Below are positions 22,221-60,242 of a stretch of 64,000 bases of DNA, piece after piece. Position 1 is the stretch's first letter; each line of letters begins with the position of its first letter. A program made the position numbers and the translations under genes. The DNA lies in the NCBI GenBank assembly GCA_000165345.1, contig CM000434.1, forward strand, positions 992,001 to 1,056,000, given 5' to 3'. The notes beneath the pieces were generated by a model. The model was not told the DNA's origin and did not search any database. It saw only the letters and a program-made list of their open reading frames with translations.

Positions 22221-24395
22221 ATGATTCCGAATGGATCAAAACTTGAGCTTGGAACTTTAGTATTAGGTTCTGAAACAGTAAGAAAAGGATGGAATGCATT
22301 TTCAACTTTAAATAATGCAATAGATGGAGTTAGAAAAGTGGCAAATGATGTAGTAGGATATAATAATTCAACAACAATAGGAAATGAGAATTATAAAGGA
22401 GAATTGGAAAATAATAAAATAGTAAGTATAATAGAGAAAATAGAAGTAGGACAGGTATATGGAAGATTAAAAAATGATTTAAAATTAATACAAATATTTG
22501 AAAGAGAAACAAAATCAATGGGAACTTTAGAAATTATTTCAATTAATAATAATTTAGACTTTTCATATTTAAATATAAGATGGAGACGAAAAATGGGTGA
22601 AAAATTAATTGATATACAAGGTAAAGATTCAAGCCTAAAATATAACTTAACAGCTGATGATGTAGGAACAATTATTATTATAGAAATATATCCAAAAGGA
22701 GAAGCAAATGATCCTTTAAATATTACATATTGTGAATTAGGACCTATAGAAATAGATGATACAACAAAGATATCTTTATCAAAATCTTTAAAAACAGGTC
22801 TTATTAGATTCCCTGTAGAAATTATAAAAGATGAATTTGAAAGCTTAATAAATCCAGAAAATTCTTCAAAAGAATTAAAAAATGATGAAGATTCAATAAT
22901 GACAAAAGATATTTTGGTAGTAACAAATGATGATGTTAAAGTAATTAAAAATGGAATGACAAGTTCAAATTCAAACTTTGAAAAGAAAATTGTATGGTCA
23001 GCAAAATACTTTGGTGGTAATATACATATTCAATTAAATCATCAATCATCATCTTGTCAAGAATTCACTCTTTGTTCTGGATACGATATTCATAAACAAA
23101 AGATATCAATTAAAACAACAAGTAGAAATGCTAGAGATATTGCAGCTTTAACAATTAGATGTTTAAATATTAGACACACAATATCATTAGAAGCTATAAT
23201 TGGAGGTGGAGTTTCCTGGATCCCAAAAAACTCAACAGTAAATGATTCAGATAATATGGAAATTGAAGAAAATAGAAAATTAAATATTTTTGCTTATATA
23301 GGACGTCTAGAAGATGAAATTGCAAATTTAGAGAATAACAAGGAAAAACTGAACGAAGATAAAAAACTTCTTCAAACTGAAAAAGCTATTTTAGAAAATG
23401 AATTAGCTGAGACAATTTCAGCTTATCAAGATATAATTTCTCAATATCAACAAGAAAAAGATACTAAAACCAATACTAACAAACAAACCAAAGAATTTAA
23501 CATAGAATTTGGGCTTGAAAAGAACACAGGAATTAAACAATCCAACAATAGTCCAAACAAAAAGTCGATTCAATCAAATTCAAATAATTCTCATAAATCT
23601 ACCTTACTACATGGTTACAGTGGTACCTATCCTATAAATAATTCAAAACAAGATGGATCTAGCAATTCAGAAAATAATAATAACTCACAGAAAAATGAAT
23701 CCATTCAACAAAATTCCACTGAAATTAATAAAATAATTGAAGAAAATGCTTCTCTTAAAGAGTCCATTTCTCAACTTAATAAAAAATTTGAAAATGAAAT
23801 TGGCGCCAAAGAGTCAATGGAGCGCATGCATGCAGAAATTGAAGAATTGCGCGGGAGATTGGAAAGGTCGGAAAAAGAAAAGGAAGACTATAAAAGATTA
23901 AATGAAAAATTAGATGGCGAAATCTTTGTTAAAAATCAAGAATTAGAGAGTATTAAGTTAGGACAATGTTTAAATTCGACTAGAAATATAGAAAAGATAC
24001 AGCAATTGGAAGATCGCATATTGGATCTTCAGAGTCAGAATTCTGAAAAACAACAAGCTATTCAAACTTTATCAACAGAAAAATCAAAGCTTCTAAAAGA
24101 CTTTTCATCATTAAAATTAGACTTTGATAAGCTTAAGGAGCAACATAATCAACTAAATAAGAGATACATAAGCTTAAATCTTGAGAATTCAAGAATTCAT
24201 GATCAAGAAAAATCATCAAAATTTGACAATGAACTCATGAATTCTGACTCTCAAAACAAAAATGACCAAGCTGTTGATATTACAAAACTAAAAAGTGAGC
24301 TTGAAGATTATAAGAAAACTAATTGTGAGCTTAACCAGACTATAACTCAACTTAAAACAAGAATACGAAGGTTAGCAATGATCAATTCTACTTAG
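22221..24395 (+). CDS. hypothetical protein, 724 aa, with C-terminal coiled-coil region
   Basis: Long ORF. C-terminal 300 aa heptad-rich (LEDRILDLQSQNSEKQQAIQTLSTEKSKLLKDF…). E2F/G-box/GCATGCA module 350 bp upstream. Confidence 0.65.
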   Translation: MIPNGSKLELGTLVLGSETVRKGWNAFSTLNNAIDGVRKVANDVVGYNNSTTIGNENYKGELENNKIVSIIEKIEVGQVYGRLKNDLKLIQIFERETKSMGTLEIISINNNLDFSYLNIRWRRKMGEKLIDIQGKDSSLKYNLTADDVGTIIIIEIYPKGEANDPLNITYCELGPIEIDDTTKISLSKSLKTGLIRFPVEIIKDEFESLINPENSSKELKNDEDSIMTKDILVVTNDDVKVIKNGMTSSNSNFEKKIVWSAKYFGGNIHIQLNHQSSSCQEFTLCSGYDIHKQKISIKTTSRNARDIAALTIRCLNIRHTISLEAIIGGGVSWIPKNSTVNDSDNMEIEENRKLNIFAYIGRLEDEIANLENNKEKLNEDKKLLQTEKAILENELAETISAYQDIISQYQQEKDTKTNTNKQTKEFNIEFGLEKNTGIKQSNNSPNKKSIQSNSNNSHKSTLLHGYSGTYPINNSKQDGSSNSENNNNSQKNESIQQNSTEINKIIEENASLKESISQLNKKFENEIGAKESMERMHAEIEELRGRLERSEKEKEDYKRLNEKLDGEIFVKNQELESIKLGQCLNSTRNIEKIQQLEDRILDLQSQNSEKQQAIQTLSTEKSKLLKDFSSLKLDFDKLKEQHNQLNKRYISLNLENSRIHDQEKSSKFDNELMNSDSQNKNDQAVDITKLKSELEDYKKTNCELNQTITQLKTRIRRLAMINST

Positions 24396-30506: not shown

Positions 30507-30743
30507 TTCTACTAAAAAAAGAATCTAAAAGACTAAGGATGTGTATTAAAGCTAGAAATGCATGCATGCATGCAATTATAACGGTATCGATTAAACCAGC
30601 TTAAGAATTTTCTTTTCTTGAGGGTGAAAAAAAAAAATTCACTCCTAGATTATCTCATTTTCTGTTGTATTCCTTTCTTAGAGTGTTACAAAAGTCCTGA
30701 ATATACTAAACTTAGTAAACATGTAATTAAAAAAATCAATAAT

Positions 30744-31334
30744 TTATCGATTTGCTTTAGCAACACGTTCTACCTCATCCTTTCTCTTAATAGCATAGCT
30801 ATTTGGATTTTCCTTGGCACAGTTCATAATTTCATCAGCCAAGCATTCAGCAATGGTCTTGATGTTTCTGAAAGCCTGAGTACGAGCACCAGTACAAATA
30901 AGATAAATAGCTTGGTTGACACGTCTCAATGGTGAAACGTCAACAGCTTGACGTCTGACAGCACCAGCAGAACCAATACTAGTAGAATCTTCACGAGGAC
31001 CTCCATTCTTAACAGCATCTACAAAGACTTGAATTGGATTTTGATCAGTGACGAGATGAATAATATCAAAAGCAGCACGAACTATACGTATAGCCTGGTT
31101 CTTTTTACCATTGTTTCTACCATGCATCATTAAAGAACATACAAGTCTTTCAACAATTGGGCAAAGAGCCTTTCTAAAACGCTTAACTTGGTATCTACCT
31201 GCAGTAACTGGAGCATATACGCAAGCCTTGTCCTTGACGGCAATGTAATCTACAAGAGATAAGTCAGAAACATTGACATCGTCATAAGACCACTTGCCGA
31301 ATAATTTAACATCAGAAGTAGAGAAAGTTGCCAT
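30744..31334 (-). CDS. RPS5: 40S ribosomal protein S5 (uS7)
   Basis: 196 aa collinear with eukaryotic RPS5 throughout (KLFGKWS…[10 protein letters not shown]…[19 protein letters not shown]). Confidence 0.95.
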
Positions 31335-31741: not shown

Positions 31742-32695
31742 TTAAAAATGATTATTAGTATTACTACTACTACTGCTATTACTACAATTTTTAGTATTTT
31801 GGTGATTACGCCTAGAATTTGGATAGATTCTTGTTGTAGTTCTTTCATTATCCTCTAAATGGTGTGAAGAGTTCCATTTAATACAAATACACACTCGTCT
31901 CGGATTATTTTGAGAATAGTCTTTGTGGCTAGTATCTTCATATTGTCTAATATTGTGGTCATACAATACAATCTGACTAATTGCGCAATTTTCACACGGG
32001 AAAATGGCAGACTCCTCTAAGGATGGGAGAGGACTTCTATGCATGAATAGTCTCTTCATTATCATATCTTGAAAAAGTCCATGACTAATTAGAATATTAG
32101 TATTTCCTTGATATTCGGTACCTTTTTTTTGCAAATCTTCGCAACTAATTTCCCATAATAATTCTGCAACTTTTTGTGCTCTCTCAGAGGCCTCTTTGAA
32201 AGTTTCTTGAGGTTTTCCCCACCACCCTTTTTCTGTGATCCTATCATCTAATTGAAAATTTGGGAATTCTTCCATTATTTCACTCCTTTTTTTCCCGCCA
32301 CAAACTTCTTTTGATTCTCTGGGACTATAGACATGTCTTCTGCCTTTAAAAACTCCTCCAACTTCACATAGATCTGGATTTACAAATACTGGAATACTAA
32401 GAATTTTCTGGATCTCATTTGCAGTCTCTAATGACCTTTGCATTGGCGAACAATAAATTGCTTTGAATGTTGGACTAGCCAAATTCATTGACTTCTGGTC
32501 TTCCCTTTCTTGTTTCCACACCTTAACACTTTCTGAAGCTAAATATAATCCAGTTTTTTCTGCCTGTATACGTCCTAACTCCGTTAATGTTGGATCTGGA
32601 ACTCTTTCATCACTATACTTTTCTCCTAAATCTGTTGAATCATTGTTATTGGTTGCATTGTTTGCTGACTCTGCATGCCTAATAAAAAACCACAT
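31742..32695 (-). CDS. histidine phosphatase superfamily (phosphoglycerate mutase-like) protein
   Basis: 317 aa. N-terminal catalytic RHAES (RHG-type) motif at residues 6-10 and a second His region (ILISHGLF). C-terminal basic/Ser-rich tail. Confidence 0.7.
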   Translation of the reverse strand: MWFFIRHAESANNATNNNDSTDLGEKYSDERVPDPTLTELGRIQAEKTGLYLASESVKVWKQEREDQKSMNLASPTFKAIYCSPMQRSLETANEIQKILSIPVFVNPDLCEVGGVFKGRRHVYSPRESKEVCGGKKRSEIMEEFPNFQLDDRITEKGWWGKPQETFKEASERAQKVAELLWEISCEDLQKKGTEYQGNTNILISHGLFQDMIMKRLFMHRSPLPSLEESAIFPCENCAISQIVLYDHNIRQYEDTSHKDYSQNNPRRVCICIKWNSSHHLEDNERTTTRIYPNSRRNHQNTKNCSNSSSSSNTNNHF

Positions 32696-43077: not shown

Positions 43078-43530
43078 CGTGCCGCCAAATTTCCATTTGT
43101 ATTTTATTATTTTAAATTATATACACTCGTTGCTGCTAAGCTATTGATTCTTTGACAATAAAAAAAAGTTAAATTTTACAAGCAGTTCTCTGCTTTTGAT
43201 CATACAATCAAGCTTATTCCGCCTTGATATTTCTTTATTATCATTTCTTCTCTTTTTCTTTTTGTTTAATTCACGATTTTTTTTTTCTCTTTTATTATCT
43301 TCATTTAAAATGCCAACATAAATATTTTTATAAAATTTCAAAAATCTGCATTTCCACATTAATACGTAATTATTTCTGCATGCAAACACCGGCACGCTGA
43401 CAATTATTTAATGAAAAATTTTGTTTGTTTGCATGTAATGCCGGTATATTAATTAGGAAAAAAAAAATGTGCGCCTAATTCGAAAATTATTTTCTGTAAT
43501 TTATTATTAATCAGGTTCGATTCCCACACT
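43078..43530. promoter_or_regulatory. divergent promoter (RRM gene / PP2A B'' gene): cgtgccgccaaatttcc (43078), gcatgcaaacaccgg (43378), cccacacta (43522)
   Basis: E2F-like, AP2-like and G-box-like elements in 880-bp spacer. Confidence 0.5.
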
Positions 43531-47120: not shown

Positions 47121-47493
47121 TTTCCCACTTGTAATTATTTTTAAAGATACTGAGCAATGCTTTATAGTTTTTAAAAGTCAAGAAAATCCACAGTCCATCC
47201 ATGTACATGGGTATTGCATCCCCAATGATAATTACTTTAAGTTTAATTTTTGTTTGAGCGCGCTTAGTGTGGATTATAATGTTGAGATCTTTAATTAATC
47301 AATTCAGAAAATTATATATTATTTGTGATTGCACCCCTCCTTGTTCAAATAAAAACTTTCATACAATATTTCAATTATTTACATAAAACTCTTATCTTTC
47401 TTTAATTTCCGTTTTAATATAACCCTTTTTTTTGCTTGTATTATTTTTTTTCTTCTAATTTAATTTAATGTTATAAATATTAATTTAAAAAAT

Positions 47494-47818
47494 CATGTGG
47501 ACATTGCATGAATTTTTCTTTTCAACATGCAATAATTCTTATTGCTAATCGCCGGTATAGAAAAAATTCACTTACTCACATTTACACGTATGCAACTGGC
47601 ATGCATGCAATTACAATGCAAGCTCATGTGGACAAATAAATTATTAAAAAAAACAATGTACAAGGTTCTAAAAAAATCTTAAATTCAATATAATTTTAAC
47701 TGCTTTATTTATTTTCTATAATTTTTAATTAAACAAGAAAAAACAATTTTTAAGTTTTTTTCAAATATATTTGCAAAGTATCACCTCAAATAATTTGAGA
47801 AAAAAAAATGCGGGAAAG
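47494..47818. promoter_or_regulatory. divergent promoter (GST-like / ProRS): catgtggacattgcatgaattttt (47494), ggcatgcatgcaa (47598), tgcgggaaag (47809)
   Basis: Motif cluster in 850-bp spacer. 24-mer shared with 58683-58704. Confidence 0.5.
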
Positions 47819-47971: not shown

Positions 47972-50038
47972 ATGTCAGTGGATGAAAAACTATACTCCGA
48001 GGTATTAGATCAATTGAGCAAGCTCTCTATAAACTATTCTAAGTTTGATCATGATGCTACCCCAAATATGGAATCTATGGTGGAAGTGCTTAAAGAGCAG
48101 GCAGAAAAACACAATACTGACTTTGCAAAAAATCTATTAATAAAATCAAAAGGTAACGAAGGCTTATTTTTTGTTTTGGCACACCACGAAACCGATACGA
48201 AAATGAAGAACCTTGGGCAGATCTTTGGTGTGAGTGGAAACAAGCTTAGATTAGCTGATGAAGATGTTTTAAATGATACTCTTAAGGTAAAAAGGGGATG
48301 CTTAACTCCTTTATCTTTAATATTTGAGAAATCTGGAGGAATTCAAGTTTACTTTGATGAATGTCTTAAAGACAAGAAAGTATTTGTACATCCACTAACC
48401 AATACTGAAAGCTTTTCAATCCATATTAATGACATTGTAAAATTTGCTGAATCATGTGGAAAGAAAGTTAAATGGTTTTCTATGGATAATTTAGAGGAAC
48501 AGAAACCTGCAGGAAAGCCTGAAGAATCTAAGGAAAACGAAAGTTTGCTTGGAATTACAGCAGACAAAATAACTTCTTTTGCAGACTGGTATTCCCAAGT
48601 TATAGTAAAGTCTGAAATGATTGAATACTATGATATCTCTGGGTGTTACATATTACGCCCATGGAGTTACTTTATTTGGGAAACAATTCAAAGCGTTTTC
48701 GATCAGAAAATCAAACAACATGATGTACAAAATGCCTATTTCCCCATTTTTGTAACCCAAAAAAAGTTAGAAACTGAAAAAGATCACGTTGAAGGATTCT
48801 CTCCTGAAGTTGCATGGGTAACTAAATCAGGAAAATCAGATTTAGCCGAGCCAATAGCTATCCGTCCAACATCTGAAACAATCATGTATCCATATTTTGC
48901 CAAATGGATTAGATCCCATAGGGATTTGCCACTTAAGATTAATCAATGGACTTCCATTGTAAGATGGGAATTTAAGCATCCAACTCCATTCATCAGAACA
49001 CGTGAATTTTTATGGCAAGAAGGACATACAGCCCATTCTACTAGAAAAGAGGCTTTAGAAATGGTTGACATCATTTTAAATGAATATGCATCTATTTATG
49101 AAGATTTATTGGCAACTCCTGTAGTTAAAGGTACCAAATCTGAGAATGAAAAATTCCCTGGGGGTGATATAACTAAATCAATTGAAGGATTCATTCCAGA
49201 AATTGGTCGCGCTGTTCAGGCTGCAACTTCTCATTTACTTGGACAAAACTTTAGCAAAATGTTTGGTGTTGAATTTGAAGATGAAAAAGGAAACAAAGAA
49301 TATGCACATCAAACTTCTTGGGGCTTAACTACAAGAGCTATTGGTGTTATGATTATGACACATGGAGATAATAAAGGTTTAGTATTGCCACCTAAGGTTG
49401 CACCTGTACAAGTTATTATTATTCCCATCATTTTTAAAACCGTTATCACTGAGGAACAGAAGAAAATCTGCAATGAAGTGGAGTGTATTTTGAAGAAGGC
49501 TGGGGTTAGAGTAAAGATCGATGATAGATCTAACTATACTCCTGGCTGGAAATATAACCATTGGGAAGTTAAAGGTGTATGCTTGAGATTTGAAGTTGGA
49601 CCGCGTGATATCGAAAAGAGAAGTGTTCGTGTTGTTGTTAGAGATAATATGGAGAAAATGGATATTCCAATTTCCGAATTGGAATCAAAGATACCAAAGT
49701 TGTTGGAAGAATTCCAAAATAGACTGTTATTTAAGGCCAAACAACGACAAAATGAATCTATCATAAGAGTTGATACATTTGACAAAGTTATGGATACACT
49801 GAACCAAAAGAAGATGGTTATAGCTCCTTGGTGTGAGGATGTATCATGCGAGGAAGAAATTAAAAAGGAAACTGCAAGACTTAGTTTGGATAATGAAGAC
49901 AATCAGTCCATGACCGGTGCAATGAAATCCTTGTGTATACCTAATGATCAAATATTTAAAATAGAAGAAGGAAAAACAAAGTGTTTCTTCTGTGATAAAC
50001 TCGCAAAGAAATTTACACTATTTGGAAGAAGTTACTAA
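47972..50038 (+). CDS. prolyl-tRNA synthetase (class II) with N-terminal YbaK/ProX-like editing-type domain
   Basis: 688 aa. Class II motifs, eukaryote/archaeal-type ProRS C-terminal zinc-binding domain ending …FTLFGRSY*. ~200-aa N-terminal YbaK-like domain typical of apicomplexan ProRS. Confidence 0.95.
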   Translation: MSVDEKLYSEVLDQLSKLSINYSKFDHDATPNMESMVEVLKEQAEKHNTDFAKNLLIKSKGNEGLFFVLAHHETDTKMKNLGQIFGVSGNKLRLADEDVLNDTLKVKRGCLTPLSLIFEKSGGIQVYFDECLKDKKVFVHPLTNTESFSIHINDIVKFAESCGKKVKWFSMDNLEEQKPAGKPEESKENESLLGITADKITSFADWYSQVIVKSEMIEYYDISGCYILRPWSYFIWETIQSVFDQKIKQHDVQNAYFPIFVTQKKLETEKDHVEGFSPEVAWVTKSGKSDLAEPIAIRPTSETIMYPYFAKWIRSHRDLPLKINQWTSIVRWEFKHPTPFIRTREFLWQEGHTAHSTRKEALEMVDIILNEYASIYEDLLATPVVKGTKSENEKFPGGDITKSIEGFIPEIGRAVQAATSHLLGQNFSKMFGVEFEDEKGNKEYAHQTSWGLTTRAIGVMIMTHGDNKGLVLPPKVAPVQVIIIPIIFKTVITEEQKKICNEVECILKKAGVRVKIDDRSNYTPGWKYNHWEVKGVCLRFEVGPRDIEKRSVRVVVRDNMEKMDIPISELESKIPKLLEEFQNRLLFKAKQRQNESIIRVDTFDKVMDTLNQKKMVIAPWCEDVSCEEEIKKETARLSLDNEDNQSMTGAMKSLCIPNDQIFKIEEGKTKCFFCDKLAKKFTLFGRSY

Positions 50039-50207: not shown

Positions 50208-53200
50208 CTACCAATTAAGATCAAGCCTTTTGATTTGCTCCCCAATAGAATTCACATCCTTTCTAACTTTGGTTCTTCTATAAAATATAGGGCAATCTCT
50301 TGAAGTACAAATAATATCTTGGAAAGCACTTCCTTGGCACCTTTGGCACTGAGTCCAGAGTGAATTATATTCAATTTCTTTTTCTCTGAATTCATGAAGT
50401 TTATTAATAAGTACCGAACATTCCATATTTTCTTGTTTGGAACAATCTTTACAAAGTGGACCTTCCTTTATAATTGTTTTACAATTCATACACTGAAGAC
50501 CCTTCTTTACAAATCCTGCTAGAGCGCCTCCTGTAACACTCAAAACAGTTACAGATCTTGTATGGCTTCCTGAAAAGAGTTTTTCAGGATCCTTCATGAC
50601 TCCTTCAAAAACTCGAATTACTGAAGATTTTAGTGTATCTACATAATGTTGTGTATCAATTGCGAGATTATTTTCGAGTACATATAATGGATCTTCAGCG
50701 CGATCATATTGAGGCTGACCTTTAGCACCTTTAATTACTACATAAGAGACTCTGTCTCCAATATTTGGTGCAGATCCTGGGTCTCTTAATTTAAGCCTTT
50801 TTGCTAACTCAACATGAGCGAGTTTTGCAGTATAATCATCTTTTCCAAGACTCTTACTAACTACCAACAAAGACAAGTCTATTTTATTCTTTAGTAAGTC
50901 TGAAATTACATTTCTGGTATATTGTTTGGCTGCTTCAACATCTTTATCAACTAGAATCTTCTTTAAGACAGTATCAACCACTTTTTGTACAAGAAGACAG
51001 TTATCTCTTCTAACAGTCTCAATTCCCTTACAATCAATTCTCTCATGGAATTGTGGATTCTTAAAAAGTACTCCAGCATATCTTTTTTTATTCATCAATA
51101 AGAATGGACAATATACTTTTTCAAATTCTAATTTAATTGGTTTTACAAAGAGCTTACTTATTGAAGTTGCAGCTTCCAAACCAAGTTTCATTGCTTCTCC
51201 AATATCTGATACTCCAAACTGAATCATTACAGAATCTGTGTCACCATAAACAACTTTGGCATCAGCAGAATAACCATTTTCTTTTCTATATATCTTTTCA
51301 ACCTCATTTTTGGTAATATCAATCATTGCTCTACCATATGAAGTAATACTTGTTGAAAGTTCCAAGCATGGAAGTTGGCCTCCAGCCACTGCACCAGTAT
51401 ATCCATAAACACTATTTGCTGAAGTCTTTAAAGCAAGTTGTCTACCATTTAAAATAGAGATTAATGTTGGATCAGTTGCTTCCTCCATTTCTTTTTTGGC
51501 TTTCTTTCTTGCAGCTATAAGCTCTTCAACAATTAATGGAAGTATACCCTTTCTGACTGAAGATAATACAAAAGAATGACCAGTTGGAGAAGTCTTTCTT
51601 AAATCTTCTGGTACATTTTTAAGATTAAGTGGAGGAATTAGTGTAGAATAGCAAATATTGTGAGCAATCATAATTGAGGGATACAAAGAAGCAAAATCTA
51701 AAGTAGAAATTGGGTCCTTATAAAATCCTTTTAAAGGTTCTAATACAGTTGCTCCTTCATATTGGTTATCCCCATCAGATTGATTCTTTACTGTTGGCAT
51801 CAAGAAGTTGGTAGACTTACATTTCCTCAAGATTTGGCTTGTAACTTTAATTTGTTGGCCTCTACTTAGCAAAATATCTATTGTGGTACCCGTTACTCTT
51901 GCCATTTCTATAATATTTGGGAATAATTTCAAATGTTTCATAAGCCTTAATGGAAGTATTGAATCTTTGAGACAATATATTGCAATTCTCTTTCTTGTTT
52001 CAGGATTTCCATCTTGTAAGCCTCTAATCATTGAATAATGAACATCTTCTTTTTGTTCTTTTAGAAAGTTTGTGGAAACGTAGTTCAAAGAATAGCTTTT
52101 TAATTTGTGCTCTCTACGAATAGTCTCCAAAATATCCCATAGAATCCTTCCTTCAATATTAATCAATTTACTCTCATGAGTTCCAAATGCTCTGGATGAA
52201 AATCTGGTATCTTTACTTGTAATTTTTGTTTTAGCTAGCCTTGTAAAGAAGAAAAAATCATTCAATTGGAATAATTTAGCTCTTTCTAATAGGTAATTCA
52301 TATCAAAATTGATGCAATTATAACCTGTAATGACATCTGGATCTAATGCCAATAAAAAATCCTTCCATGCTAATAACATATCTTTTTCAGACTCAAACCA
52401 AAATACAAAAGCTTCAGCTACTGATGCACATTCTTTGAGAGTAAATATTACATTACAAATGGATTCAGGGCTATCTAGAAGTGTTACTACTGAAGATATT
52501 TGGATAACAGAATCTTTATGTGGCTCTGGAAATCCTACTCCAGACTCTGTAATGCATTCAATATCAAAAGAAAGTATTCTTATTGGTGGTAAAGTTGCCC
52601 ATTTCCCTGAGCTTCCAAGCACTATCAAATCGTCATAGAAAAGATCCATTTCTATTTGGCATGAACTAATTCTTTGAAATGGGCTTATCCTTACAAAACC
52701 TGCATCTTTAAAATCAAATTCTTGTCCTCCAAGTCTAATATACGATTTTTGCTTCGGTATCGATACCCATGATCCGGTACTTAAATCTCTATCAATTAAA
52801 TATCTTAGAATAAAAGGTATATTTGCTTCGTAAGCTTGAGGAATACAATCTAAATTCCCATTTTCTATCATAGATCTACAGGTGGGAACTAAGTTTGGTA
52901 GTTGTAGAGTGATTTTGTAGAACTGGGAATCTTCTATTTCTGAATCGCCTTTGTAATGCATTATTGATTCTTTTTTTAAAACTTGTACATTAAGGACATT
53001 TTTTCCTTCTGTTGCTCCTAATCCACTTTCAATTTGAGTTTTAATCTTTTCTGGATTAGGAGGTGTGCTTTTAGGTACTTCACAGTAGAGATAAGGAAAG
53101 AAACAGTGAATATTTATTAAAACTGTTATTCCGGTGCTGGTTGACCCAAATAGTTGTATTATTGGTGTTTCAATGTTGTCTTGGTTAGTCTTATTAGAAA

Positions 53201-53462
53201 ATACATTGTAAGAGCTTGAATTATACTTTTCATAAAACTCAGGTGATGGATTTTGGGAAGGAAATTTCCCAGTTGAAAACTTGGCATCCAATATGCAAAA
53301 GTCTAAATTATCATCTTTTGAAATATTCCCACATTGTGGATCAAGACTAACTTTGTTTCTTCTCCATCTATCCAGACAATTCTCAAAAAGCTTCCGAGAA
53401 GCTTCTGCATTCTCTTGGGTGAATCCTATGGTAGAAATTATTTCTTCCCCCTTTTCCATCAT
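50208..53462 (-). CDS. POLD1: DNA polymerase delta catalytic subunit (family B)
   Basis: 1084 aa. Exonuclease motifs (FDIE, YNCINFD), polymerase motifs (DFASLYPSIM, KxxxNSxYG, YGDTDS), C-terminal CysA/CysB zinc modules. Collinear with human POLD1. Confidence 0.95.
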   Translation of the reverse strand: MMEKGEEIISTIGFTQENAEASRKLFENCLDRWRRNKVSLDPQCGNISKDDNLDFCILDAKFSTGKFPSQNPSPEFYEKYNSSSYNVFSNKTNQDNIETPIIQLFGSTSTGITVLINIHCFFPYLYCEVPKSTPPNPEKIKTQIESGLGATEGKNVLNVQVLKKESIMHYKGDSEIEDSQFYKITLQLPNLVPTCRSMIENGNLDCIPQAYEANIPFILRYLIDRDLSTGSWVSIPKQKSYIRLGGQEFDFKDAGFVRISPFQRISSCQIEMDLFYDDLIVLGSSGKWATLPPIRILSFDIECITESGVGFPEPHKDSVIQISSVVTLLDSPESICNVIFTLKECASVAEAFVFWFESEKDMLLAWKDFLLALDPDVITGYNCINFDMNYLLERAKLFQLNDFFFFTRLAKTKITSKDTRFSSRAFGTHESKLINIEGRILWDILETIRREHKLKSYSLNYVSTNFLKEQKEDVHYSMIRGLQDGNPETRKRIAIYCLKDSILPLRLMKHLKLFPNIIEMARVTGTTIDILLSRGQQIKVTSQILRKCKSTNFLMPTVKNQSDGDNQYEGATVLEPLKGFYKDPISTLDFASLYPSIMIAHNICYSTLIPPLNLKNVPEDLRKTSPTGHSFVLSSVRKGILPLIVEELIAARKKAKKEMEEATDPTLISILNGRQLALKTSANSVYGYTGAVAGGQLPCLELSTSITSYGRAMIDITKNEVEKIYRKENGYSADAKVVYGDTDSVMIQFGVSDIGEAMKLGLEAATSISKLFVKPIKLEFEKVYCPFLLMNKKRYAGVLFKNPQFHERIDCKGIETVRRDNCLLVQKVVDTVLKKILVDKDVEAAKQYTRNVISDLLKNKIDLSLLVVSKSLGKDDYTAKLAHVELAKRLKLRDPGSAPNIGDRVSYVVIKGAKGQPQYDRAEDPLYVLENNLAIDTQHYVDTLKSSVIRVFEGVMKDPEKLFSGSHTRSVTVLSVTGGALAGFVKKGLQCMNCKTIIKEGPLCKDCSKQENMECSVLINKLHEFREKEIEYNSLWTQCQRCQGSAFQDIICTSRDCPIFYRRTKVRKDVNSIGEQIKRLDLNW

Positions 53463-53534
53463 CTTTGTTTCTTAATACCCCCTGTTTTCTTTTTTTATTT
53501 TGACAAGAGAAAACTCCTTTAGTTTAAGGCAAGC

Positions 53535-53558
53535 AAAAGGCGCCACCTCCCCACACTA
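53535..53558. promoter_or_regulatory. E2F + G-box module aaaaggcgccacctccccacacta in 233-bp bidirectional promoter of DNA pol delta and RecQ
   Basis: Only GC-rich element between divergent ATGs 53462(-) and 53696(+). Near-identical to 21864-21884. Confidence 0.65.
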
Positions 53559-53695
53559 TGTTAATTCTTATTGAAATGAATTATTTAAAATATAGTCAAT
53601 TTTATGTTTTTAGGTATTTTTGCATCAAGAAAAAAGGGACAAGAGTATTATTTCTTTTTTCCTTTAATATTGTGAGAAATAATATAACCCAATAA

Positions 53696-56668
53696 ATGGA
53701 AGATGAATCAGAATTTCAAGAAACTCATAAGAGTAGTTTAGAGTCGGAATTAAGATGGTATAAGGAGAATTTTGAACAAATAAAAAACGATTTACTCTCT
53801 AAATTGAATAAAGGCAGAAGTTCTAACTCAGAAATATCATGTGTGCTGCAAAATGAAACAAACAATATCGGTAAAATCTTTTTCGGAAAACCTATCAGAG
53901 ACTTTTCCTCGTTTTCCAATGTAATTCGAAATGTTTCAAAAAAAATTACCTTCAATAGTGATAGCCATGCATGCACACACCCGCATGCAAACACCGGTAT
54001 TGAAAATACATACGTGGCAGAGATTTCGGATAATCATGTGGACAACATAATTAGTAATCACAAAAAAGTTGAAGAGTTGTGTAAGGAAGAGAATGAAGAT
54101 GAAGTTATAGAATTGAAAGTATTGGGATGTGGAGGAAGGGAAGTAGAGGAGATTGTATCAAGCTCATCTTCTAGCAAGGAGAATTTATATACAATTTTGA
54201 ATATCCTGCCAAATTCTGACTTTTCAACGGTTAAAACAAAGTCCAGAAAGAATACAACAAAGAAAAGCTCTTCAAACGAGAAAAAGTTATTGAATTGCAG
54301 GAGAAAAGTTCAGGTCAATGAGAAGGACCAAGATTGGGAAAGGGAAGATTTTGAATGGTCAGAGGATATGAAAAGAATCAATGAGCAAGTTTTTGGCAAT
54401 GAATCATTTAGGTCAAATCAAAGACAGATAATGAATGCAGTGGTTTCTCAAAGGGACGTTTTTGTTATGATGCCAACAGGAGGAGGAAAGTCACTTTGTT
54501 TCCAGCTTCCTGGCCTTTTAAAATATAACAACCCTGCAAGTGTGACGGTGGTTATCATGCCCTTAGTTGCACTTATGGTTGACCAAATTGAACAGTTGAA
54601 TATACTCGGCATTAAATGTGCAAGTTTGAATAGTAATCAGTCTGCAGATGAGTTGAATCATATTACATCCTTACTGAAGAAGGGAGATCCTGAAACATGT
54701 CCTGCCTTTCTATTTGTAACTCCCGAAAAGCTTAAGCATTCAAAGACTTTGTTTTCACTACTAAAGCAAATTAATGATGAATCAAGATTATTAAGATTTG
54801 CAATTGATGAGGCTCATTGTGTTTGTCAATGGGGATTTGACTTTAGACCTGACTATATTCAACTTTGTAAACTCAGAGAAGAGTTCCCAAATGTCCCGAT
54901 AATAGCATTAACTGCCACTGCCACTCATAGTATTTTGAGTGATGTAATTAAACAACTAAAGATGCGATCTCCTGCTATCTTTAGTCTTTCTTTTGACAGA
55001 CCAAATCTAAAATATGAGGTAAGAGCTAAAAGTGGAAGTAAAAAAAAGATGCTCAATGAGATCTGTGAGCTGCTTAGATCTCCACGGTTTTGTAGATCAA
55101 CAAGTATTATCTACTGTTTGAGCAGAAATGAGTGCGAAGAAGTCTCCAAAGATTTGAACAAGGAAGGAATTTCTGCAACATATTACCATGGATCCATGAA
55201 AGAAGATAAGCGGAATCTGGCACAAAGAAGATGGATGAATGACGAAAAGCAGGTCATGGTAGCAACCATAGCATTTGGAATGGGAATCAATAAAAAAGAT
55301 GTTAGACTTGTGATTCATCTATCCATGCCAAAATCCCTTGAAAACTATTACCAAGAAAGTGGTAGAGCTGGAAGAGATGGACTAGAGTCTAAATGTATAT
55401 TATATTACTCTTACAAAGATGTCTCTAGATTACAAACTTTAGCAGGAGTTAACATTGAAAAACCTTCCAAAAAGTATTATACCTCCAAGAATAACTCTTC
55501 AAATAACAAATCCACAATTGATGGACTTTTAGGTATGGTGAAATATTGTGAAGAACAATATAAATGCAGAAGAACAATGATTCTAAGCCATTTTGGAGAG
55601 GATTTTAAAGGAAAATGTAAGGTTAAATGCGATAATTGTATGAGATCTGAATTAGAAAAGCCGACTAACATTAATGTGGAAGGTCTTGCTCGTCAAGTCT
55701 TTCACTCAGTAAGAATGAGCCTTCAAGAACAGGCAAGAGCTACAAAAACCTATGGATTTTTAACTTTATCTAGCTTAGCAGAAATCTTAAAAGGAAAGAA
55801 AAAGAAAGATAAGCAATCAAAAGGCTCCCTTAAAGACTGTATTGGTCTTCTTAATGATACAAATATTTGGAAGCCAGGAAATCTGCAAAGATTCCTGCAT
55901 TTGTTTATTATTAATCAGCTTTTTTCTGAGAATTTGGTTCAACTCAAAAATGGAGTATCAGTTGCTTCTCTTAAAATTGATAAACAAGCAGAAAAACAAG
56001 ATATCTATGAACTCGACTTTTCTTGTTTCAAAGCCTTACAGTTAGAGTCCATCTACTCTACTCCAATTCCAGAATCAAATAATGTTAATTTGGGCCATAA
56101 TATTAACTCATCTCTTTCCTTGTATTCTTTTAACTCAAAACAATCTTCTTCAGATATTAATTTTGCTAATAATGGCTTAATATCTAACTCTAACAACATA
56201 GAGAACTTGAATCACGATAAGAATCTCAAGGAATCCAGAAGAAAAAGACAATTCATTGATAAAGGATCTCCCCATTCAATAGTTAAGAAGAAGCAGGCAA
56301 ATTTGATGTATCAAGAATCTAACAGTGAAAATGAACAGCTTAAAGATTTTAGAAATCAATTACTTTTACTAAGAAGAAACTTAGCTGCAGAGTTTGGAAT
56401 CTCTAATACCAACTCTATTGCATCAAAGGAAGCTATTGATGCTCTTGTTGAGAATCTCCCGCTTTCATTAGATGCTCTTAAAACACTTCCTGGATGGGGC
56501 GCAAGGCAAAAACTTGAAAGATTTGGTCTCAGATTCATCTCAAAGGTCAGAGATTTTGTTGATTCCAAGTCAACCAATATGTTTTATACCGAAAAGAATT
56601 ATACTTGTCCAATTGACCTTATTAATCCTGAAGATCTGGACAAAGAACTAGATCTTATTTGGCAATAA
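53696..56668 (+). CDS. RecQ-family ATP-dependent DNA helicase
   Basis: 990 aa. Helicase core (MPTGGGKSLCFQLPG, DEAHCVCQWGFDFRPDY, RQ-C zinc region), C-terminal HRDC-like domain. Non-conserved 220-aa N-terminal extension. Alternative in-frame ATG at 54368. Confidence 0.9.
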   Translation: MEDESEFQETHKSSLESELRWYKENFEQIKNDLLSKLNKGRSSNSEISCVLQNETNNIGKIFFGKPIRDFSSFSNVIRNVSKKITFNSDSHACTHPHANTGIENTYVAEISDNHVDNIISNHKKVEELCKEENEDEVIELKVLGCGGREVEEIVSSSSSSKENLYTILNILPNSDFSTVKTKSRKNTTKKSSSNEKKLLNCRRKVQVNEKDQDWEREDFEWSEDMKRINEQVFGNESFRSNQRQIMNAVVSQRDVFVMMPTGGGKSLCFQLPGLLKYNNPASVTVVIMPLVALMVDQIEQLNILGIKCASLNSNQSADELNHITSLLKKGDPETCPAFLFVTPEKLKHSKTLFSLLKQINDESRLLRFAIDEAHCVCQWGFDFRPDYIQLCKLREEFPNVPIIALTATATHSILSDVIKQLKMRSPAIFSLSFDRPNLKYEVRAKSGSKKKMLNEICELLRSPRFCRSTSIIYCLSRNECEEVSKDLNKEGISATYYHGSMKEDKRNLAQRRWMNDEKQVMVATIAFGMGINKKDVRLVIHLSMPKSLENYYQESGRAGRDGLESKCILYYSYKDVSRLQTLAGVNIEKPSKKYYTSKNNSSNNKSTIDGLLGMVKYCEEQYKCRRTMILSHFGEDFKGKCKVKCDNCMRSELEKPTNINVEGLARQVFHSVRMSLQEQARATKTYGFLTLSSLAEILKGKKKKDKQSKGSLKDCIGLLNDTNIWKPGNLQRFLHLFIINQLFSENLVQLKNGVSVASLKIDKQAEKQDIYELDFSCFKALQLESIYSTPIPESNNVNLGHNINSSLSLYSFNSKQSSSDINFANNGLISNSNNIENLNHDKNLKESRRKRQFIDKGSPHSIVKKKQANLMYQESNSENEQLKDFRNQLLLLRRNLAAEFGISNTNSIASKEAIDALVENLPLSLDALKTLPGWGARQKLERFGLRFISKVRDFVDSKSTNMFYTEKNYTCPIDLINPEDLDKELDLIWQ

Positions 56669-56947
56669 CTTATCATAGTTATCTCTAATTTGCTTAATTA
56701 AACTATTTTTCTTATAAGTCTCTTTAACCAGATAATCATAATATTTATTCTTTACTAGAATCCATTTAATGTTATTAATATGGCAATTTGGCGGGAATTT
56801 TATGCAATTCTTATTTGTTGTGCATGGCCTCGTTTGGCGCCCAGTCTGTGTATAAATGAGGTATAATGTTCAACTTGTATTTTAATAGAAGTTGTTGGTT
56901 CAAATTTGTAGATCCAAAGTTCGTTATGATCTTATTGCATTTCCAAG

Positions 56948-57952: not shown

Positions 57953-58024
57953 GTTTTTACTTTGTTCCTTCCTTTCACTCTAAATTAATCCTTGAATTTT
58001 AAAATTTATATGTATAAACAAAAA

Positions 58025-58065
58025 TATATGAATATATATATTAACCCAATATATATATTCATATA
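58025..58065. repeat. perfect 18-bp inverted repeat (tatatgaatatatatatt / aatatatatattcatata) with 5-bp spacer aaccc
   Basis: Arms are exact reverse complements. Lies 72 bp upstream of minus-strand ATG 57952 in a 1-kb divergent spacer. Confidence 0.9.
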
Positions 58066-58964
58066 AATATATATATTGGATTAATATGTAAGTTTATTAA
58101 AAAACATTATTTTTTGAGAAAGCCAGAATGAATTCTAGAGCTTTTCAATTGAAGAAAGAAAGCGAAATGTATACAATTTGAATATTTTGACAAATTTTAA
58201 TCTTCATGTAAGTTTTAATTAATTTACCGGTACTTTTGCCTTGTCATTAATATGTGCACCCGAGTGTGCACACAGCATTGCCTCGATGTGATTTCAAAAG
58301 AATTATTAAAAATAATAATTGAGTGAAAATCTGGCAAATTTAAGACATGTCTACACAAATATTTTGAGTAATCTTTTCTTTTCCCGTCAAATGCTTAATT
58401 TCATATTCATCAACCATTTTCTTTCACCCAAATATGTAATCCTATGTGGGCAATATTAAATTAATTTAATAGAATTTTTCGTATTCAACAAGTAATGAAC
58501 TTTTTAAGACTAAATTAAGTTTTGATATTATTTCTATCGCAAATACCTAAATAAATATTTACTAGCTTACTCTACAATTCGACTTTAGTTGTTTTATCTC
58601 CTATCTTTTTCTCCACCCCAATTTTTTTTTTTATTTAATTGTTGACATTTACCGGTACATGCAATTTTGCTTGCATGAAATTCATGTGGATAATGCATGA
58701 ATTTAGAAAAAAAATATTCAATACCGGTGAAGGATTTAATGTGGATGCATGCAATAATGTTATTATGGGACTAAGTAGAGGAAATTTTCGTCAAATAATG
58801 AATGAGAAAAAAAATAAGTAGAAAGTGGAAAAGGAAAATAGGAATAATTATTGTTAATTTTGTATATTAGTGTAGAAAATAATATACATATATGTAAAAG
58901 AGAACAAAAAGAGTTAGGTTTTTTTTAAGAGTTTAACCATAGTTGTTGATTTTTATTAAAAAAT

Positions 58965-60242
58965 TTGAATAAGATTATTAAAGAAGAGCCAATGTCTGAA
59001 AAGAATATTATACCATTTCAGGAGGAAGAGACGAATAATGAAAAAAAGTTGGGAGTTTATGAAAAACAGGATTTGAGTGAAAGGAGGAAAGAGCTTTGGA
59101 TAATTTCAAAAAGTCTTGGGGCAATTACATTGGTATCTGCAGTAATGAATCTGGTTTTGGTTGGGATAATGATATTTATGGTAAACAGCCTAATTAAAGG
59201 CATAATATCAGAACATTCCAGGCAAATAGCAATTCAAAAGGGGATGTTATCAAACTTTATTGAAAGGAATTCAAGAATAGAAAAAAGTGTTCATAATGAA
59301 AGGATGAATTTTAACGATCATTGGAGGAAAGGAGCTGGAATACTTCCATTAAATATGCTTTACAATGCGCCATTAAAAAGTCTAGAGAATGTAGATGCTA
59401 TCATACTAGAGTTTGATGAACCAGAACAAATCGAATCTGGAAATCAAGAGAAAAAAATTAAAGGAAAAAGGCACCAGCATATGTATCATGTTGAATCCAT
59501 TACAAGAGAAGTTTCAGTAGAAGAGATGGAAGGAGGAAAACATAAAAAAAAAGAGGAAGCTGTATTAAAGTTTAACTTAACCAATCAAGGTACACTCACT
59601 GTTTATAAGGATAAAGCTATTTTAAGAGATAGGTTAGGAAACAAAGTGCATGAACTTTTCTTTGAATCAGAAAATCAAACTCATGAATATCAAAGCAAAG
59701 AAGCGGAAAAATTGCTCAGATCCGACTCAAAAGACGAGGAAAATGAAAAACAAGGTCACATACAACCTAATAATAGAAAGCTTATATCTTCCAATTCACA
59801 CAAGCACTCAGCATCCCATTCTTTGAAAACTCAAAGTGGTTATATGGCAGCTGTATGTAAATATGGATGCGGAGAAATGGGAGTAACCTACCCCTATTAC
59901 TATCGCCCCTTCTTTGGATATGGATTTCCTTTACTAGGTACTGAACCGTATTTCCAAAGTGGATATGGAGGTAATGTTGAAACTGCCATGAATAATAATA
60001 TGTTCAACCCTGAATCAGCTGGTCCTCGTCCTCCAGGAGTACAAGCAACTCCACAAACTTCACCATTTGCAATGGGCGAAAATCCATATAGCTATCCATA
60101 CTCATCTAGCCCAGGAGGAGGATACTATTATTACTATAACTTCTACCCTCCACCTCCCCCAATGCAACCAGAACCGTTCCCATATTACGAAGAAAGCTAT
60201 TACAATATTCCCCAAAATAACACAGAAGAAGAAGAAGAATAA
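58965..60242 (+). CDS. type II single-pass membrane protein with Tyr/Pro/Gly-rich C-terminus
   Basis: 425 aa. One TM helix (AITLVSAVMNLVLVGIMIFMV) near the N-terminus. C-terminal 120 aa extremely rich in Tyr/Pro/Gly (YPYYYRPFFGYGFP…GGGYYYYYNFYPPPPPMQPEPFPYY), acidic tail. Confidence 0.6.
   Translation: MNKIIKEEPMSEKNIIPFQEEETNNEKKLGVYEKQDLSERRKELWIISKSLGAITLVSAVMNLVLVGIMIFMVNSLIKGIISEHSRQIAIQKGMLSNFIERNSRIEKSVHNERMNFNDHWRKGAGILPLNMLYNAPLKSLENVDAIILEFDEPEQIESGNQEKKIKGKRHQHMYHVESITREVSVEEMEGGKHKKKEEAVLKFNLTNQGTLTVYKDKAILRDRLGNKVHELFFESENQTHEYQSKEAEKLLRSDSKDEENEKQGHIQPNNRKLISSNSHKHSASHSLKTQSGYMAAVCKYGCGEMGVTYPYYYRPFFGYGFPLLGTEPYFQSGYGGNVETAMNNNMFNPESAGPRPPGVQATPQTSPFAMGENPYSYPYSSSPGGGYYYYYNFYPPPPPMQPEPFPYYEESYYNIPQNNTEEEEE

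Follow-up and report, generated by a model that had tools for sequence, protein, structure and literature searches.

In Cryptosporidium, the promoter motifs AP2_1 and AP2_2 have been described from non-coding DNA upstream of genes (Oberstaller 2013, 2014). They are bound by ApiAP2 proteins such as cgd2_3490, according to De Silva (2008) as cited in Oberstaller, and four AP2 domains are published as binding TGCAT and four as binding CACACA. A third motif, A[T/A]G[T/A]GGA.A, was reported together with AP2_1 upstream of class II oocyst-wall genes (Oberstaller 2013), and E2F/AP2_1 promoters of antisense lncRNAs are known from C. parvum (Li et al. 2021). Published surveys of promoter motifs and AP2 targets in Cryptosporidium have been directed at intergenic DNA only, with coding sequence deliberately excluded. 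In animals, transcription-factor sites, enhancers and synonymous constraint elements within exons have a second function at the nucleotide level, revealed by suppressed synonymous change. In budding yeast, intragenic promoters yield N-terminally truncated isoforms, for example in meiosis.

A block of about 105 bases, located 270-350 bp inside the ORF of a Cryptosporidium RecQ helicase and 3' of its start codon, resembles each of these systems in part. Like the AP2_1/AP2_2 systems, it has exact consensus matches co-occurring with A[T/A]G[T/A]GGA.A, and it is conserved in the manner of a true intergenic module, beyond neutral expectation; it differs from them in lying inside an ORF, though upstream of the neighbouring DNA polymerase delta gene and of an in-frame ATG at 54368. 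With the animal elements it shares the suppression of synonymous change, but it belongs to a protist whose genome measures 9 Mb and has spacers of about 0.2-1 kb, and it would be a compact promoter-type element beside a divergent promoter, not a long-range enhancer. The likeness to yeast consists in a compact genome, transcription-factor motifs within an ORF and a downstream in-frame ATG before the catalytic domain; upstream out-of-frame ATGs and the loss of 17 residues, however, disfavour efficient production of a shorter isoform, and in comparison with both the animal and the yeast cases the RecQ block is known from its sequence. We conclude that it is a conserved predicted transcription-factor-binding module embedded in coding sequence. 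Very probably it also acts as a gene-control element, because promoter motifs are shared and silent codon positions are unchanged across species; as such it would be an exonic regulatory element, of a kind already known. A literature search on coding-embedded regulatory elements in Cryptosporidium gave nothing specific.

The stretch of DNA analysed (the window) comprises 64,000 nucleotides of chromosome 6 from Cryptosporidium of the parvum/hominis group, in which RecQ and DNA polymerase delta are divergent neighbours separated by an intergenic spacer of 233 bp (Table 1). An island with an E2F site and a G-box is the only conserved one in this spacer and is kept as far as C. felis. The N-terminal extension of RecQ had been called non-conserved in the earlier note; this is wrong, as each of the nine Cryptosporidium orthologues compared has the extension, much alike in length and with L19, W21, G64, S72, I77 and S81 invariant. 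Judged by these orthologues it is truly coding genus-wide, and a mis-annotated 5' UTR is ruled out by the open frame, the similar length and the partial conservation in nine species.

Table 1. Positions of the RecQ module, its constituent words and neighbouring features in the window
Feature	Position	Strand	Remarks
RecQ/BLM helicase CDS (cgd6_4420 / CPATCC_0016040)	53696..56668	+	990 aa; Pfam DEAD, Helicase_C, RecQ_Zn_bind
DNA polymerase delta catalytic subunit (cgd6_4410), divergent neighbour of RecQ	50208..53462	-	ATG 504-582 bp from module
E2F site GGCGCC and G-box CCCCACAC in pol delta/RecQ spacer	53539..53556	.	Published motif identities
Antisense lncRNA Cp_lnc_287, passing through module	53756..56622	-	Sequence taken from supplementary file 1 of Li et al. 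2021
Entire conserved module embedded in coding sequence, RecQ codons 82-116	53937..54044	.	Supported by silent-site run and nucleotide identity
A8 tract, then TTACC (AAAAAAAATTACC)	53938..53950	+	K82, K83 and I84 codon-identical from window species to C. canis
TGCATGCA (AP2_1) overlapping GCACAC/CACACA (AP2_2)	53968..53980	.	Fits BGCATGCAH and GCACAC (Oberstaller 2013)
Second AP2_1 site fused to CCGG word (CGCATGCAAACACCGGTAT)	53982..54000	.	Its 15-mer equals intergenic 43378-43392
TACGTGGCA (ACGT-core word)	54011..54019	+	Weakest element of module
AATCATGTGGACA, containing ATGTGGACA	54032..54044	+	13-mer equals 47491-47503; fits A[T/A]G[T/A]GGA.A
First downstream in-frame ATG of RecQ (M225)	54368..54370	+	Met from window species to C. 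felis

The words of the module are TGCATGCA overlapping GCACAC, a second GCATGCA fused to ACACCGGTAT, TACGTGG, and CATGTGGACA. Their identity as motifs is established: AP2_1 is matched exactly to consensus twice (TGCATGCAC at 53968-53976 and CGCATGCAA at 53982-53990) and AP2_2 once (53973-53978). Under the overlapping AP2_1/AP2_2 site, GCA TGC ACA is invariant in six species; His91 has become Ser in C. canis (CAT to AGT), yet the T that completes TGCATGCA is retained. Beneath the second AP2_1 site, CAT GCA AAC ACC GGT is kept, with a single change each in chipmunk genotype I and one further species, and all three non-coding copies of CCGGTAT in the window fall within modules of the same kind. 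The ACGT-core word TACGTGGCA is kept in the window species, C. tyzzeri, one further species and C. canis; C. meleagridis and chipmunk genotype I have lost it. ACGT words are present also in window modules M1, M2 and M5. As for the last word, CATGTGGAC is kept in C. meleagridis, chipmunk genotype I and one further species, and ATGTGGA in C. tyzzeri and C. canis. A literature search combining 'ATGTGGA' with Cryptosporidium returned primer sequences only, the relevant mention being that of Oberstaller (2013). The A8 tract involves AAA codons, for which the background rate of codon identity is 0.12, and a poly-T/A motif is enriched in the open chromatin of Cryptosporidium (Xiao 2025).

Recurrence of these words in true promoters is likewise established. 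The same combination is found in four intergenic modules (1167-1340, 43353-43447, 47491-47635 and 58651-58753), which sit 210-480 bp upstream of + strand ATGs and up to about 800 bp from - strand ATGs. The module at 58651-58753 is conserved as deeply as that in RecQ, from the window species to C. canis. In the 53 kb of coding DNA the vocabulary occurs once, as the RecQ module. GCATGCA has 32 occurrences in the window, where 3.5 would be expected, and GCATGC is present at 1.28 per kb of non-coding DNA versus 0.094 per kb of ORFs, with two of its five coding copies inside the RecQ module. The window has five clusters in which at least three of the four word types fall within 120 bp (four intergenic, the fifth being the RecQ module), versus 0.125 in shuffles, a count that is partly circular since the CCGG and ACGT words were defined post hoc from these modules. 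Every string quoted in the earlier note is present, either where it was placed or one base away: the first letter of ccatgcatgcacacacccgcatgcaaacaccgg is at 53965, the two GCATGCA boxes lie at 53969-53975 (inside the full palindrome TGCATGCA, 53968-53975) and 53983-53989, and the 15-mer GCATGCAAACACCGG is indeed shared with the promoter at 43378, occurring exactly twice (43378 and 53983; three matches with up to two mismatches versus 0.03 expected in the window). The exact repetition of the 13-mer AATCATGTGGACA also holds (47491-47503 and 54032-54044; 0.00 expected), the first copy having previously been placed one base off, at 47492-47504. That the words are promoter-type motifs, and functional ones instead of accidents, is supported by their fit to published motifs, their recurrence in four intergenic modules and their invariance at synonymous sites.

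Strong synonymous constraint on the block is established by a codon comparison across four divergent lineages (the window species, chipmunk genotype I, one further species and C. canis), between which silent sites elsewhere are near saturation. Over 1485 columns, only 0.20-0.23 of amino-acid-identical codons are also codon-identical, and the longest codon-identical run in RecQ and pol delta outside the module is 5; within the module, 12 of 12 consecutive amino-acid-identical degenerate codons are codon-identical. Runs of 12 were reached in 0 of 20000 permutations (P below 5e-5), and synonymous substitution in the module is significantly below the gene background. In the 30 nt at 53969-53998, four-species nucleotide identity is 83% versus an amino-acid identity of 60%, and the nucleotide identity of the module equals that of the invariant helicase core, the protein here being only about 31% identical four ways. 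That short A/T-rich or palindromic words have merely fallen by chance in a coding region would agree with the presence of single 6-7-mers (ATGTGGA, CCGGTAT) in other ORFs of the window, but it is effectively refuted by the exact 13-mer and 15-mer repeats expected 0.00-0.03 times, by the excess of clusters over shuffles and by the permutation result.

It is very unlikely that the constraint has a non-transcriptional cause, such as an RNA structure in the RecQ mRNA or its antisense transcript, a second reading frame overlapping the first, or a conserved peptide HACTHxHANTG that needs particular codons. Partial conservation of H-A-C-T-H-x-H-A-N-T-G does extend from the window species to C. canis, but the nucleotides outlast the amino acids, with motif bases persisting through H91S, H95Q and P96S/L, and the invariant third positions go beyond any constraint of the peptide, the background identity for GGT, ACA and GCA codons being 0.00-0.18. 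The +2 frame and one antisense frame are open across the module in five species, but these frames are short and have no conserved start codon, and dual coding is unlikely. RNA structure was rejected, as the single strands of 53930-54050 fold no better than shuffles do (z-scores of -0.34 for the + strand and -1.24 for the - strand) and no Rfam family was found in 53300-54700, where a sub-threshold hit to KCNQ1OT1_1 (21 bits versus a gathering threshold of 70, at 53308-53464) is biologically irrelevant. The conserved words, moreover, are those of intergenic promoters.

If the module acts in transcription, it may drive + strand initiation about 100-300 bp downstream, giving either a shorter RecQ mRNA translated from M225 or a regulatory transcript. 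The M225 product would be the helicase core without the N-terminal region, probably stage-specific. Such an internal start is possible but on the doubtful side. The next in-frame ATG is at 54368, as had been claimed; the module lies 324-400 bp and ATGTGGA 332 bp upstream of it, to be compared with 210-480 bp and 224-477 bp, respectively, between the intergenic modules and + strand ATGs. The polar order shared with those modules, an ACGT word followed by a gene-proximal ATGTGGA, is directed into RecQ, an argument from orientation that is based on just four other modules. M225 is present in the module-bearing lineages and in C. felis, where the module is degenerate, whereas the species without the module, C. 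ryanae, C. xiaoi, C. andersoni and C. serpentis, have Leu in its place; human BLM has Met at the aligned position. Against an M225 isoform, most species have out-of-frame ATGs shortly before M225, at CDS nt 622 and 659, the former beginning an ORF of 17 codons that extends over the M225 ATG, and there are further out-of-frame ATGs upstream. M225 had been thought to sit exactly at the start of the conserved core, but homology to the crystallised human BLM core begins at N208, 17 residues upstream. Initiation at M225 would retain helicase motif 0 and everything downstream while removing N208-D224 (DWERxDFEWS), residues that are conserved genus-wide and aligned to that core. Between the module and M225 there is also no conserved proximal E2F/G-box, and silent-site runs do not recur there. 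A protein collection searched for exact copies of the M225-to-stop product gave no record, a negative that carries no information, since gene prediction on genomic contigs would not yield such a protein. A literature search on Cryptosporidium RecQ and meiosis gave nothing specific.

The published short-read lncRNA set contains antisense RNA alone at the RecQ gene (Li et al. 2021), and both TGCATGCA and the CCGG core are palindromic. The AP2 sites might initiate or tune transcription on the - strand that leads from the block across the spacer and into pol delta, or they might modulate the antisense lncRNA Cp_lnc_287; the products would be a pol delta RNA with a long leader or an antisense RNA across the 5' end of RecQ. 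Among motifs upstream of lncRNAs in C. parvum, AP2_1 and E2F take the first two places (Li et al. 2021), and the RecQ locus is alike in having AP2_1 sites and a documented antisense lncRNA, which overlaps the module on the - strand. Antisense control by the module nevertheless appears unlikely. When the sequence of Cp_lnc_287 was placed on the window by locating both its ends, its start fell at 56622, at the 3' end of RecQ, next to two E2F sites (56787-56797 and 56833-56842) that constitute its own candidate promoter. The module is thus inside the body of the lncRNA and not within ~100 bp upstream of its 5' end, and Cp_lnc_287 was ruled out as a transcript driven by the module because its 5' end maps 2.6 kb away. 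Cp_lnc_287, which was assembled from short reads, indicates no 5' end near 54050, and the sole directional word faces the opposite way.

We tentatively prefer, with somewhat less than even confidence, to regard the module as the distal part of the divergent pol delta/RecQ promoter. That the motifs could be distal elements for pol delta had been offered earlier as the alternative to an internal RecQ start, and it is at least as likely. The double-stranded DNA would be read twice, once as RecQ codons from a poorly conserved part of the protein and once as factor-binding sites. Candidate binders are the TGCAT-binding AP2 proteins cgd2_3490, cgd1_3520, cgd8_3230 and cgd5_4250 and AP2 proteins binding CACACA/GCACAC, and the ATGTGGA and CCGG words may be recognised by further putative sequence-specific factors. 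With just E2F and the G-box in a short spacer, the AP2 module would be accommodated in the neighbouring coding sequence and would act on pol delta from about -500, and possibly on full-length RecQ too. Factor binding, an effect on transcription and the identity of the controlled transcript are what we infer for the block. An argument against this reading is that peaks of ATAC-seq in C. parvum sporozoites contain E2F motifs and no AP2 motifs (Xiao 2025), so any activity of the module must be at another stage.

The composition of the short spacer, whose one conserved island is E2F plus G-box, is consistent with a distal role for the module, as is a second cluster embedded in coding sequence (23800-23858), located upstream of a gene whose spacer measures 225 bp. 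In C. ryanae, TACGTA, ATACCGGTT and TGCAT are present in the spacer, which is 679 bp long, and none of them in the 5' coding region of RecQ, but these words are short enough to occur by chance. Broad expression cluster 7 contains both pol delta and RecQ (Li 2021), but they are separated in fine-grained clusters 45 and 112 (Oberstaller 2013). Distance and orientation also argue against a distal pol delta element: the module lies 504-582 bp away from the ATG of pol delta, at the upper end of the distances found for the other modules, and ATGTGGA, the sole directional word, faces away from pol delta at the RecQ-downstream end of the module, whereas in the other four modules it occupies the end closest to the ATG of a gene.

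The second coding-embedded cluster, composed of E2F and AP2_1 words, has the same silent-site conservation: informative codons are conserved in 11 of 11 cases under motif words and in 0 of 6 between them. Coding-embedded modules may therefore be general. It is somewhat unlikely that deeply conserved promoter modules within coding sequence are systematic in the compacted Cryptosporidium genome and drive stage-specific internal or neighbour-directed transcripts, among them a core-only RecQ isoform; RecQ/BLM would then be made without its N-terminal partner-binding region at a particular stage of the life cycle. If regulatory modules are common inside neighbouring ORFs, predictions of AP2 and E2F targets would be incomplete, some 'silent' polymorphisms would not be silent, and the regulation of a neighbour, here the essential DNA polymerase delta, could be upset by knock-in designs and by transgenes that are recoded or truncated. 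Internal and antisense transcripts have lately been reported in Cryptosporidium from long reads, and the locus is relevant to how they are initiated. The 105-bp block offers a clean test case, in which synonymous recoding could separate the protein function from the DNA function. The 53 kb of ORFs in the window contain two such modules, a density that would scale to a few hundred genome-wide.

The window has a G+C content of about 30%, with long, closely packed ORFs that lack introns, and the start codons of RecQ (cgd6_4420) and the divergent gene for the DNA polymerase delta catalytic subunit are 233 bp apart. The 90% protein cluster to which RecQ belongs contains proteins named "RecQ bloom helicase" from C. 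parvum, C. hominis, C. tyzzeri and C. meleagridis. Nine Cryptosporidium orthologues (those of the window, chipmunk genotype I, Cryptosporidium sp., C. canis, C. felis, C. ryanae, C. xiaoi, C. andersoni and C. serpentis) have lengths of 960 to 1013 amino acids and can be aligned from the first methionine, which rules out a mis-called 5' UTR. The N-terminal extension, described in an earlier note as non-conserved, has invariant residues scattered along it in this alignment. Among four species, residues 1-207 have 34% amino acid identity and residues 208-990 have 72%; judging from these alignments, the extension is faster-evolving than the core, yet translated. Nor does the conserved core begin exactly at M225, the first downstream in-frame ATG (54368) and the proposed start of a shorter isoform: residues N208-D224 (NE.D.DWER.DFEWSED) are conserved throughout the genus and align with the crystallised core of human BLM.

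Codons 82-116 of RecQ (53937-54044) contain a block of promoter-type words, in which every motif string quoted by the earlier note was found, at most one base from its coordinates, including a 33-mer that starts at 53965. The 15-mer said to be shared with the promoter at 43378, GCATGCAAACACCGG, has exact copies in the window only at 43378 and 53983 (3 matches versus 0.03 expected if up to two mismatches are allowed), and the 13-mer shared with the prolyl-tRNA synthetase promoter, AATCATGTGGACA, has exact copies at 47491 and 54032 (versus 0.00 expected in the window). GCATGCA is present 32 times in the window versus 3.5 expected. By a simple ORF-based partition, GCATGC is 14-fold denser in non-coding DNA (1.28/kb) than in ORFs (0.094/kb), and the block holds two of its five coding copies in the window. 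The order of words in the block is TGCATGCAC overlapping GCACACAC, next CGCATGCAA and later ATGTGGACA, an exact fit to A[T/A]G[T/A]GGA.A, which is an unassigned word that, in published work, accompanies AP2_1 in the upstream regions of class II oocyst-wall genes. In published work on C. parvum, AP2_1 is BGCATGCAH, a target of cgd2_3490 and of three further AP2 domains that recognise TGCAT, and AP2_2 is GCACAC, with four AP2 domains that bind CACACA. Because its words match these published motifs, the block is, by sequence, composed of known Cryptosporidium promoter vocabulary.

Features of the window (positions in window coordinates)
Feature	Position	Strand	Remarks
Prolyl-tRNA synthetase	47972-50038
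DNA polymerase delta catalytic subunit (cgd6_4410)	50208-53462	-	Divergent from RecQ
E2F site and G-box	53539-53556		GGCGCCA(N2-3)CCCCACAC; sole conserved island of the 233-bp spacer
RecQ/BLM-type helicase CDS	53696-56668	+	ORF, 990 aa
GCATGCA, copy 1	53969		Within full palindrome TGCATGCA (53968-53975)
GCATGCA, copy 2	53983
Module M5	1167-1340		TGCATGCA, ACACGTAAG, TTACGTG, TGCCGGCAT, GCATGTGGATGCATGCG
Module M1	43353-43447		TCCACAT, ATACGTAAT, TGCATGCAAACACCGGCAC, TTGCATGTAATGCCGGTAT
Module M2	47491-47635		AATCATGTGGACATTGCATGAATTT, CGCCGGTAT, ACACGTATGCA, GCATGCATGCA, CTCATGTGGACA
Module M4	58651-58753		TACCGGTACATGCA, TTCATGTGGATAATGCATGAATTT, ATACCGGTG, AATGTGGATGCATGCA
Second coding-embedded cluster	23800-23858		Inside coiled-coil protein ORF 22221-24395 (+)
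TTGGCGCCAA	23800		Perfect E2F palindrome, second cluster
GCATGCATGCA	23824		AP2_1, second cluster
TTGCGCGGGAGA	23847		E2F-like, second cluster

The words of the block are found together at other GCATGCA loci, as four intergenic modules (M1, M2, M4 and M5), each with ATGTGGA at one end; CCGGTAT has three non-coding copies in the window, all of them inside these modules. The adjacent genes are mixed (Mo25-like, an RRM protein, prolyl-tRNA synthetase and several without Pfam domains), and M1, M2 and M4 lie in spacers of about 0.85-1.04 kb. With a cluster defined as three or more of the four word types (GCATGC, RCCGGY, ATGTGGA, TACGT) inside 120 bp, there are 5 clusters in 64 kb versus 0.125 in shuffles, a count that is partly circular in that the CCGG and ACGT words, but not the GCATGC and ATGTGGA components, were set after the loci had been viewed. 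Four clusters lie in 10.9 kb of non-coding DNA, and one, the RecQ block, in 53.1 kb of ORFs. Longer strings are also common to modules (TCATGTGGAYAWTGCATGAATTT in M2 and M4, ATGTGGATGCATGC in M4 and M5), which suggests composite sites.

The order of the pol delta and RecQ genes is kept across the orthologous loci compared (C. tyzzeri, C. meleagridis, chipmunk genotype I, Cryptosporidium sp., C. canis, C. felis, C. ryanae and C. andersoni). The block reads CAT GCA TGC ACA CAC CCG CAT GCA AAC ACC GGT ATT ... TAC GTG GCA ... CAT GTG GAC in the window species and AGT GCA TGC ACA CAA TCG CAT GCA AAC ACC GGT ATA ... TAC GTG GCA ... AAT GTG GAT in C. canis, and one motif base is changed in each of chipmunk genotype I and Cryptosporidium sp. 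His91 is replaced by Ser in C. canis with retention of the third-position T that completes TGCATGCA, and His95 and Pro96 are also altered while the motif bases persist. Among informative columns (amino acid identical and degenerate in the window species, chipmunk genotype I, Cryptosporidium sp. and C. canis), the background of codon identity is 22.5% in RecQ (612 columns) and 19.6% in pol delta (873 columns). Codons 82-115 contain 12 consecutive informative columns (K82, K83, I84, A92, C93, T94, A98, N99, G101, Y106, A108, V115), all codon-identical; the longest such run elsewhere in the two genes is 5, and a run of 12 was reached in none of 20000 permutations (naive probability about 7e-9 per position, 1e-5 corrected over all start positions). 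The conserved codons have a low background identity (GGT 0/19, ACA 0.07, AAA 0.12, GCA 0.18). Over the 30 nt at 53969-53998, four-species identity is 83% for nucleotides and 60% for amino acids, the former as high as in the best-conserved windows of the invariant helicase core, whose amino acid identity is 90-100%. The intergenic module M4, as positive control, matches the block both in the species that keep it and in the depth of its conservation, the rest of its spacer being barely alignable.

In C. felis the block is degenerate (ACATGCAAATGCATGT, then AATGTGGGGAGTCATGCAGAG), and no version of it was found in the RecQ orthologues of C. ryanae and C. andersoni. Its least stable element is the ACGT word, which C. 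meleagridis and chipmunk genotype I have lost. A G-box-like word, TGTGGGG/T, is located just 5' of CATGTGGAC in chipmunk genotype I, Cryptosporidium sp., C. canis and C. felis, and is removed by a 5-codon deletion in the parvum group; a fuller form, (A/G/T)TGTGGG(G/T), was noted in the same four lineages at about CDS nt 340-360.

Several explanations of this constraint were considered. Peptide constraint is unable to fix third codon positions, and chance is excluded by the repeat, cluster and silent-site figures. The folding energy of the block lies inside the shuffle distribution on both strands (z = -0.34, -1.24), and an Rfam search at the block gave no meaningful match. In five species the block is traversed by two open alternative frames; neither is long or has a conserved start, and with the nucleotides conserved every frame would seem to be so. 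With RNA structure, dual coding, peptide constraint and chance set aside, the block very probably has a nucleotide-level function as double-stranded DNA, that is, predicted binding of promoter factors. By sequence and conservation its words belong to the AP2_1 and AP2_2 families, but they lie outside the usual location of such words, non-coding DNA upstream of a gene. The block can be grouped with exonic transcription-factor sites and synonymous constraint elements. In the literature on Cryptosporidium, no account of regulatory modules embedded in coding sequence was found; the published motif surveys, by their own statement, did not search coding regions.

The words of the second coding-embedded cluster were fixed from the window sequence before the C. 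ubiquitum and C. canis orthologues were fetched. Among these three species, 11 of 11 informative codons under the words are identical, including six-fold degenerate Arg and Leu codons, versus 0 of 6 between the words (gene baseline 0.26; naive probability 4.5e-7). RecQ is therefore not the only ORF with conserved promoter words inside it. The second cluster lies 1.58 kb from the start of its own gene, and the next co-directional gene (TRAPPC8-like) follows about 0.8 kb downstream of it; both coding-embedded clusters adjoin unusually short spacers, of 233 bp at RecQ and of 225 bp for the TRAPPC8-like gene's own spacer.

As to which transcript the block serves, the evidence is split. The E2F/G-box island of the pol delta/RecQ spacer, 400 bp to the left of the block, persists out to C. 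felis, and C. ryanae has it too (L009 4619-4636); in this organism, published work gives E2F with G-box as the usual signature of a replication gene. Tentatively, the block could be a distal module of the divergent promoter, whose target would be pol delta (from positions -504 to -582) and perhaps RecQ too. The short spacer and the existence of the second cluster favour this assignment, as does, weakly, the placement of the words in C. ryanae, where TACGTA, ATACCGGTT and TGCAT are next to the E2F/G-box in a 679-bp spacer and a check of the RecQ 5' coding region for block words found none.

It is rather doubtful that the block is an internal sense promoter, although its geometry would suit one: ATGTGGA is 332 bp upstream of the ATG at 54368, compared with 224-477 bp from + strand ATGs in M5, M4 and M2. 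ATGTGGA is also gene-proximal in all five modules, following the ACGT word where present, on the + strand in M2, the block, M4 and M5 and on the - strand in M1, and M225 and the block co-occur across lineages. However, out-of-frame ATGs at CDS nt 622 and 659 shortly precede M225, a start at M225 would drop 17 conserved core residues, and a conserved proximal element sought 3' of the block is absent. An internal sense promoter here would belong with intragenic promoters that yield truncated isoforms.

Antisense control is improbable: Cp_lnc_287, annotated as antisense to CPATCC_0016040 (RecQ) by Li et al. 2021, maps to 53756-56622 on the - strand, through the block, but its 5' end is 2.6 kb away, beside two E2F sites in a convergent spacer. 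Expression data do not discriminate among the divergent, internal and antisense assignments: pol delta and RecQ share the broad RNA-seq cluster 7 and fall into separate fine RT-PCR clusters (45 and 112). Published sporozoite ATAC-seq peaks contain E2F motifs and not AP2 motifs, which would place any AP2-dependent activity at other stages. Such modules might prove to be a general answer to the crowding of promoters in this compact genome, or might give rise to isoforms.

The two E2F sites downstream of RecQ, TTTGGCGGGAA and TTTGGCGCCC (56787-56797, 56833-56842; 3'-3' spacer), are likely the promoter of Cp_lnc_287, as they lie 165-220 bp upstream, on the - strand, of its 5' end. That end is overlapped by the final 60 nt of the RecQ CDS (56606-56665), where four-species nucleotide identity is the highest of the gene (0.82) and 6 of 8 silent sites are kept; this may be another dual-use segment. 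In the spacer 57953-58991, otherwise poorly alignable, TGCACCCGAGTGTGCACACAG (about 58230-58250) is perfectly kept from the window species to C. canis; it includes AP2_2-type GCACAC words and adjoins a conserved CGGTACT. A GCATGCATGCATGCAT run at 30559-30574, three and a half AP2_1 units, lies between the end of a + ORF (30423) and the stop of a - ORF (30744), apparently a 3'-3' spacer, and therefore may be part of an unannotated small gene (ORF 30618..30935) or of the promoter of an antisense RNA. GCATGCA at 32672-32678 lies 17-23 nt within the listed ORF 31742..32695 (-), with two further copies in the adjoining spacer, and the true start codon of this ORF may be further downstream.
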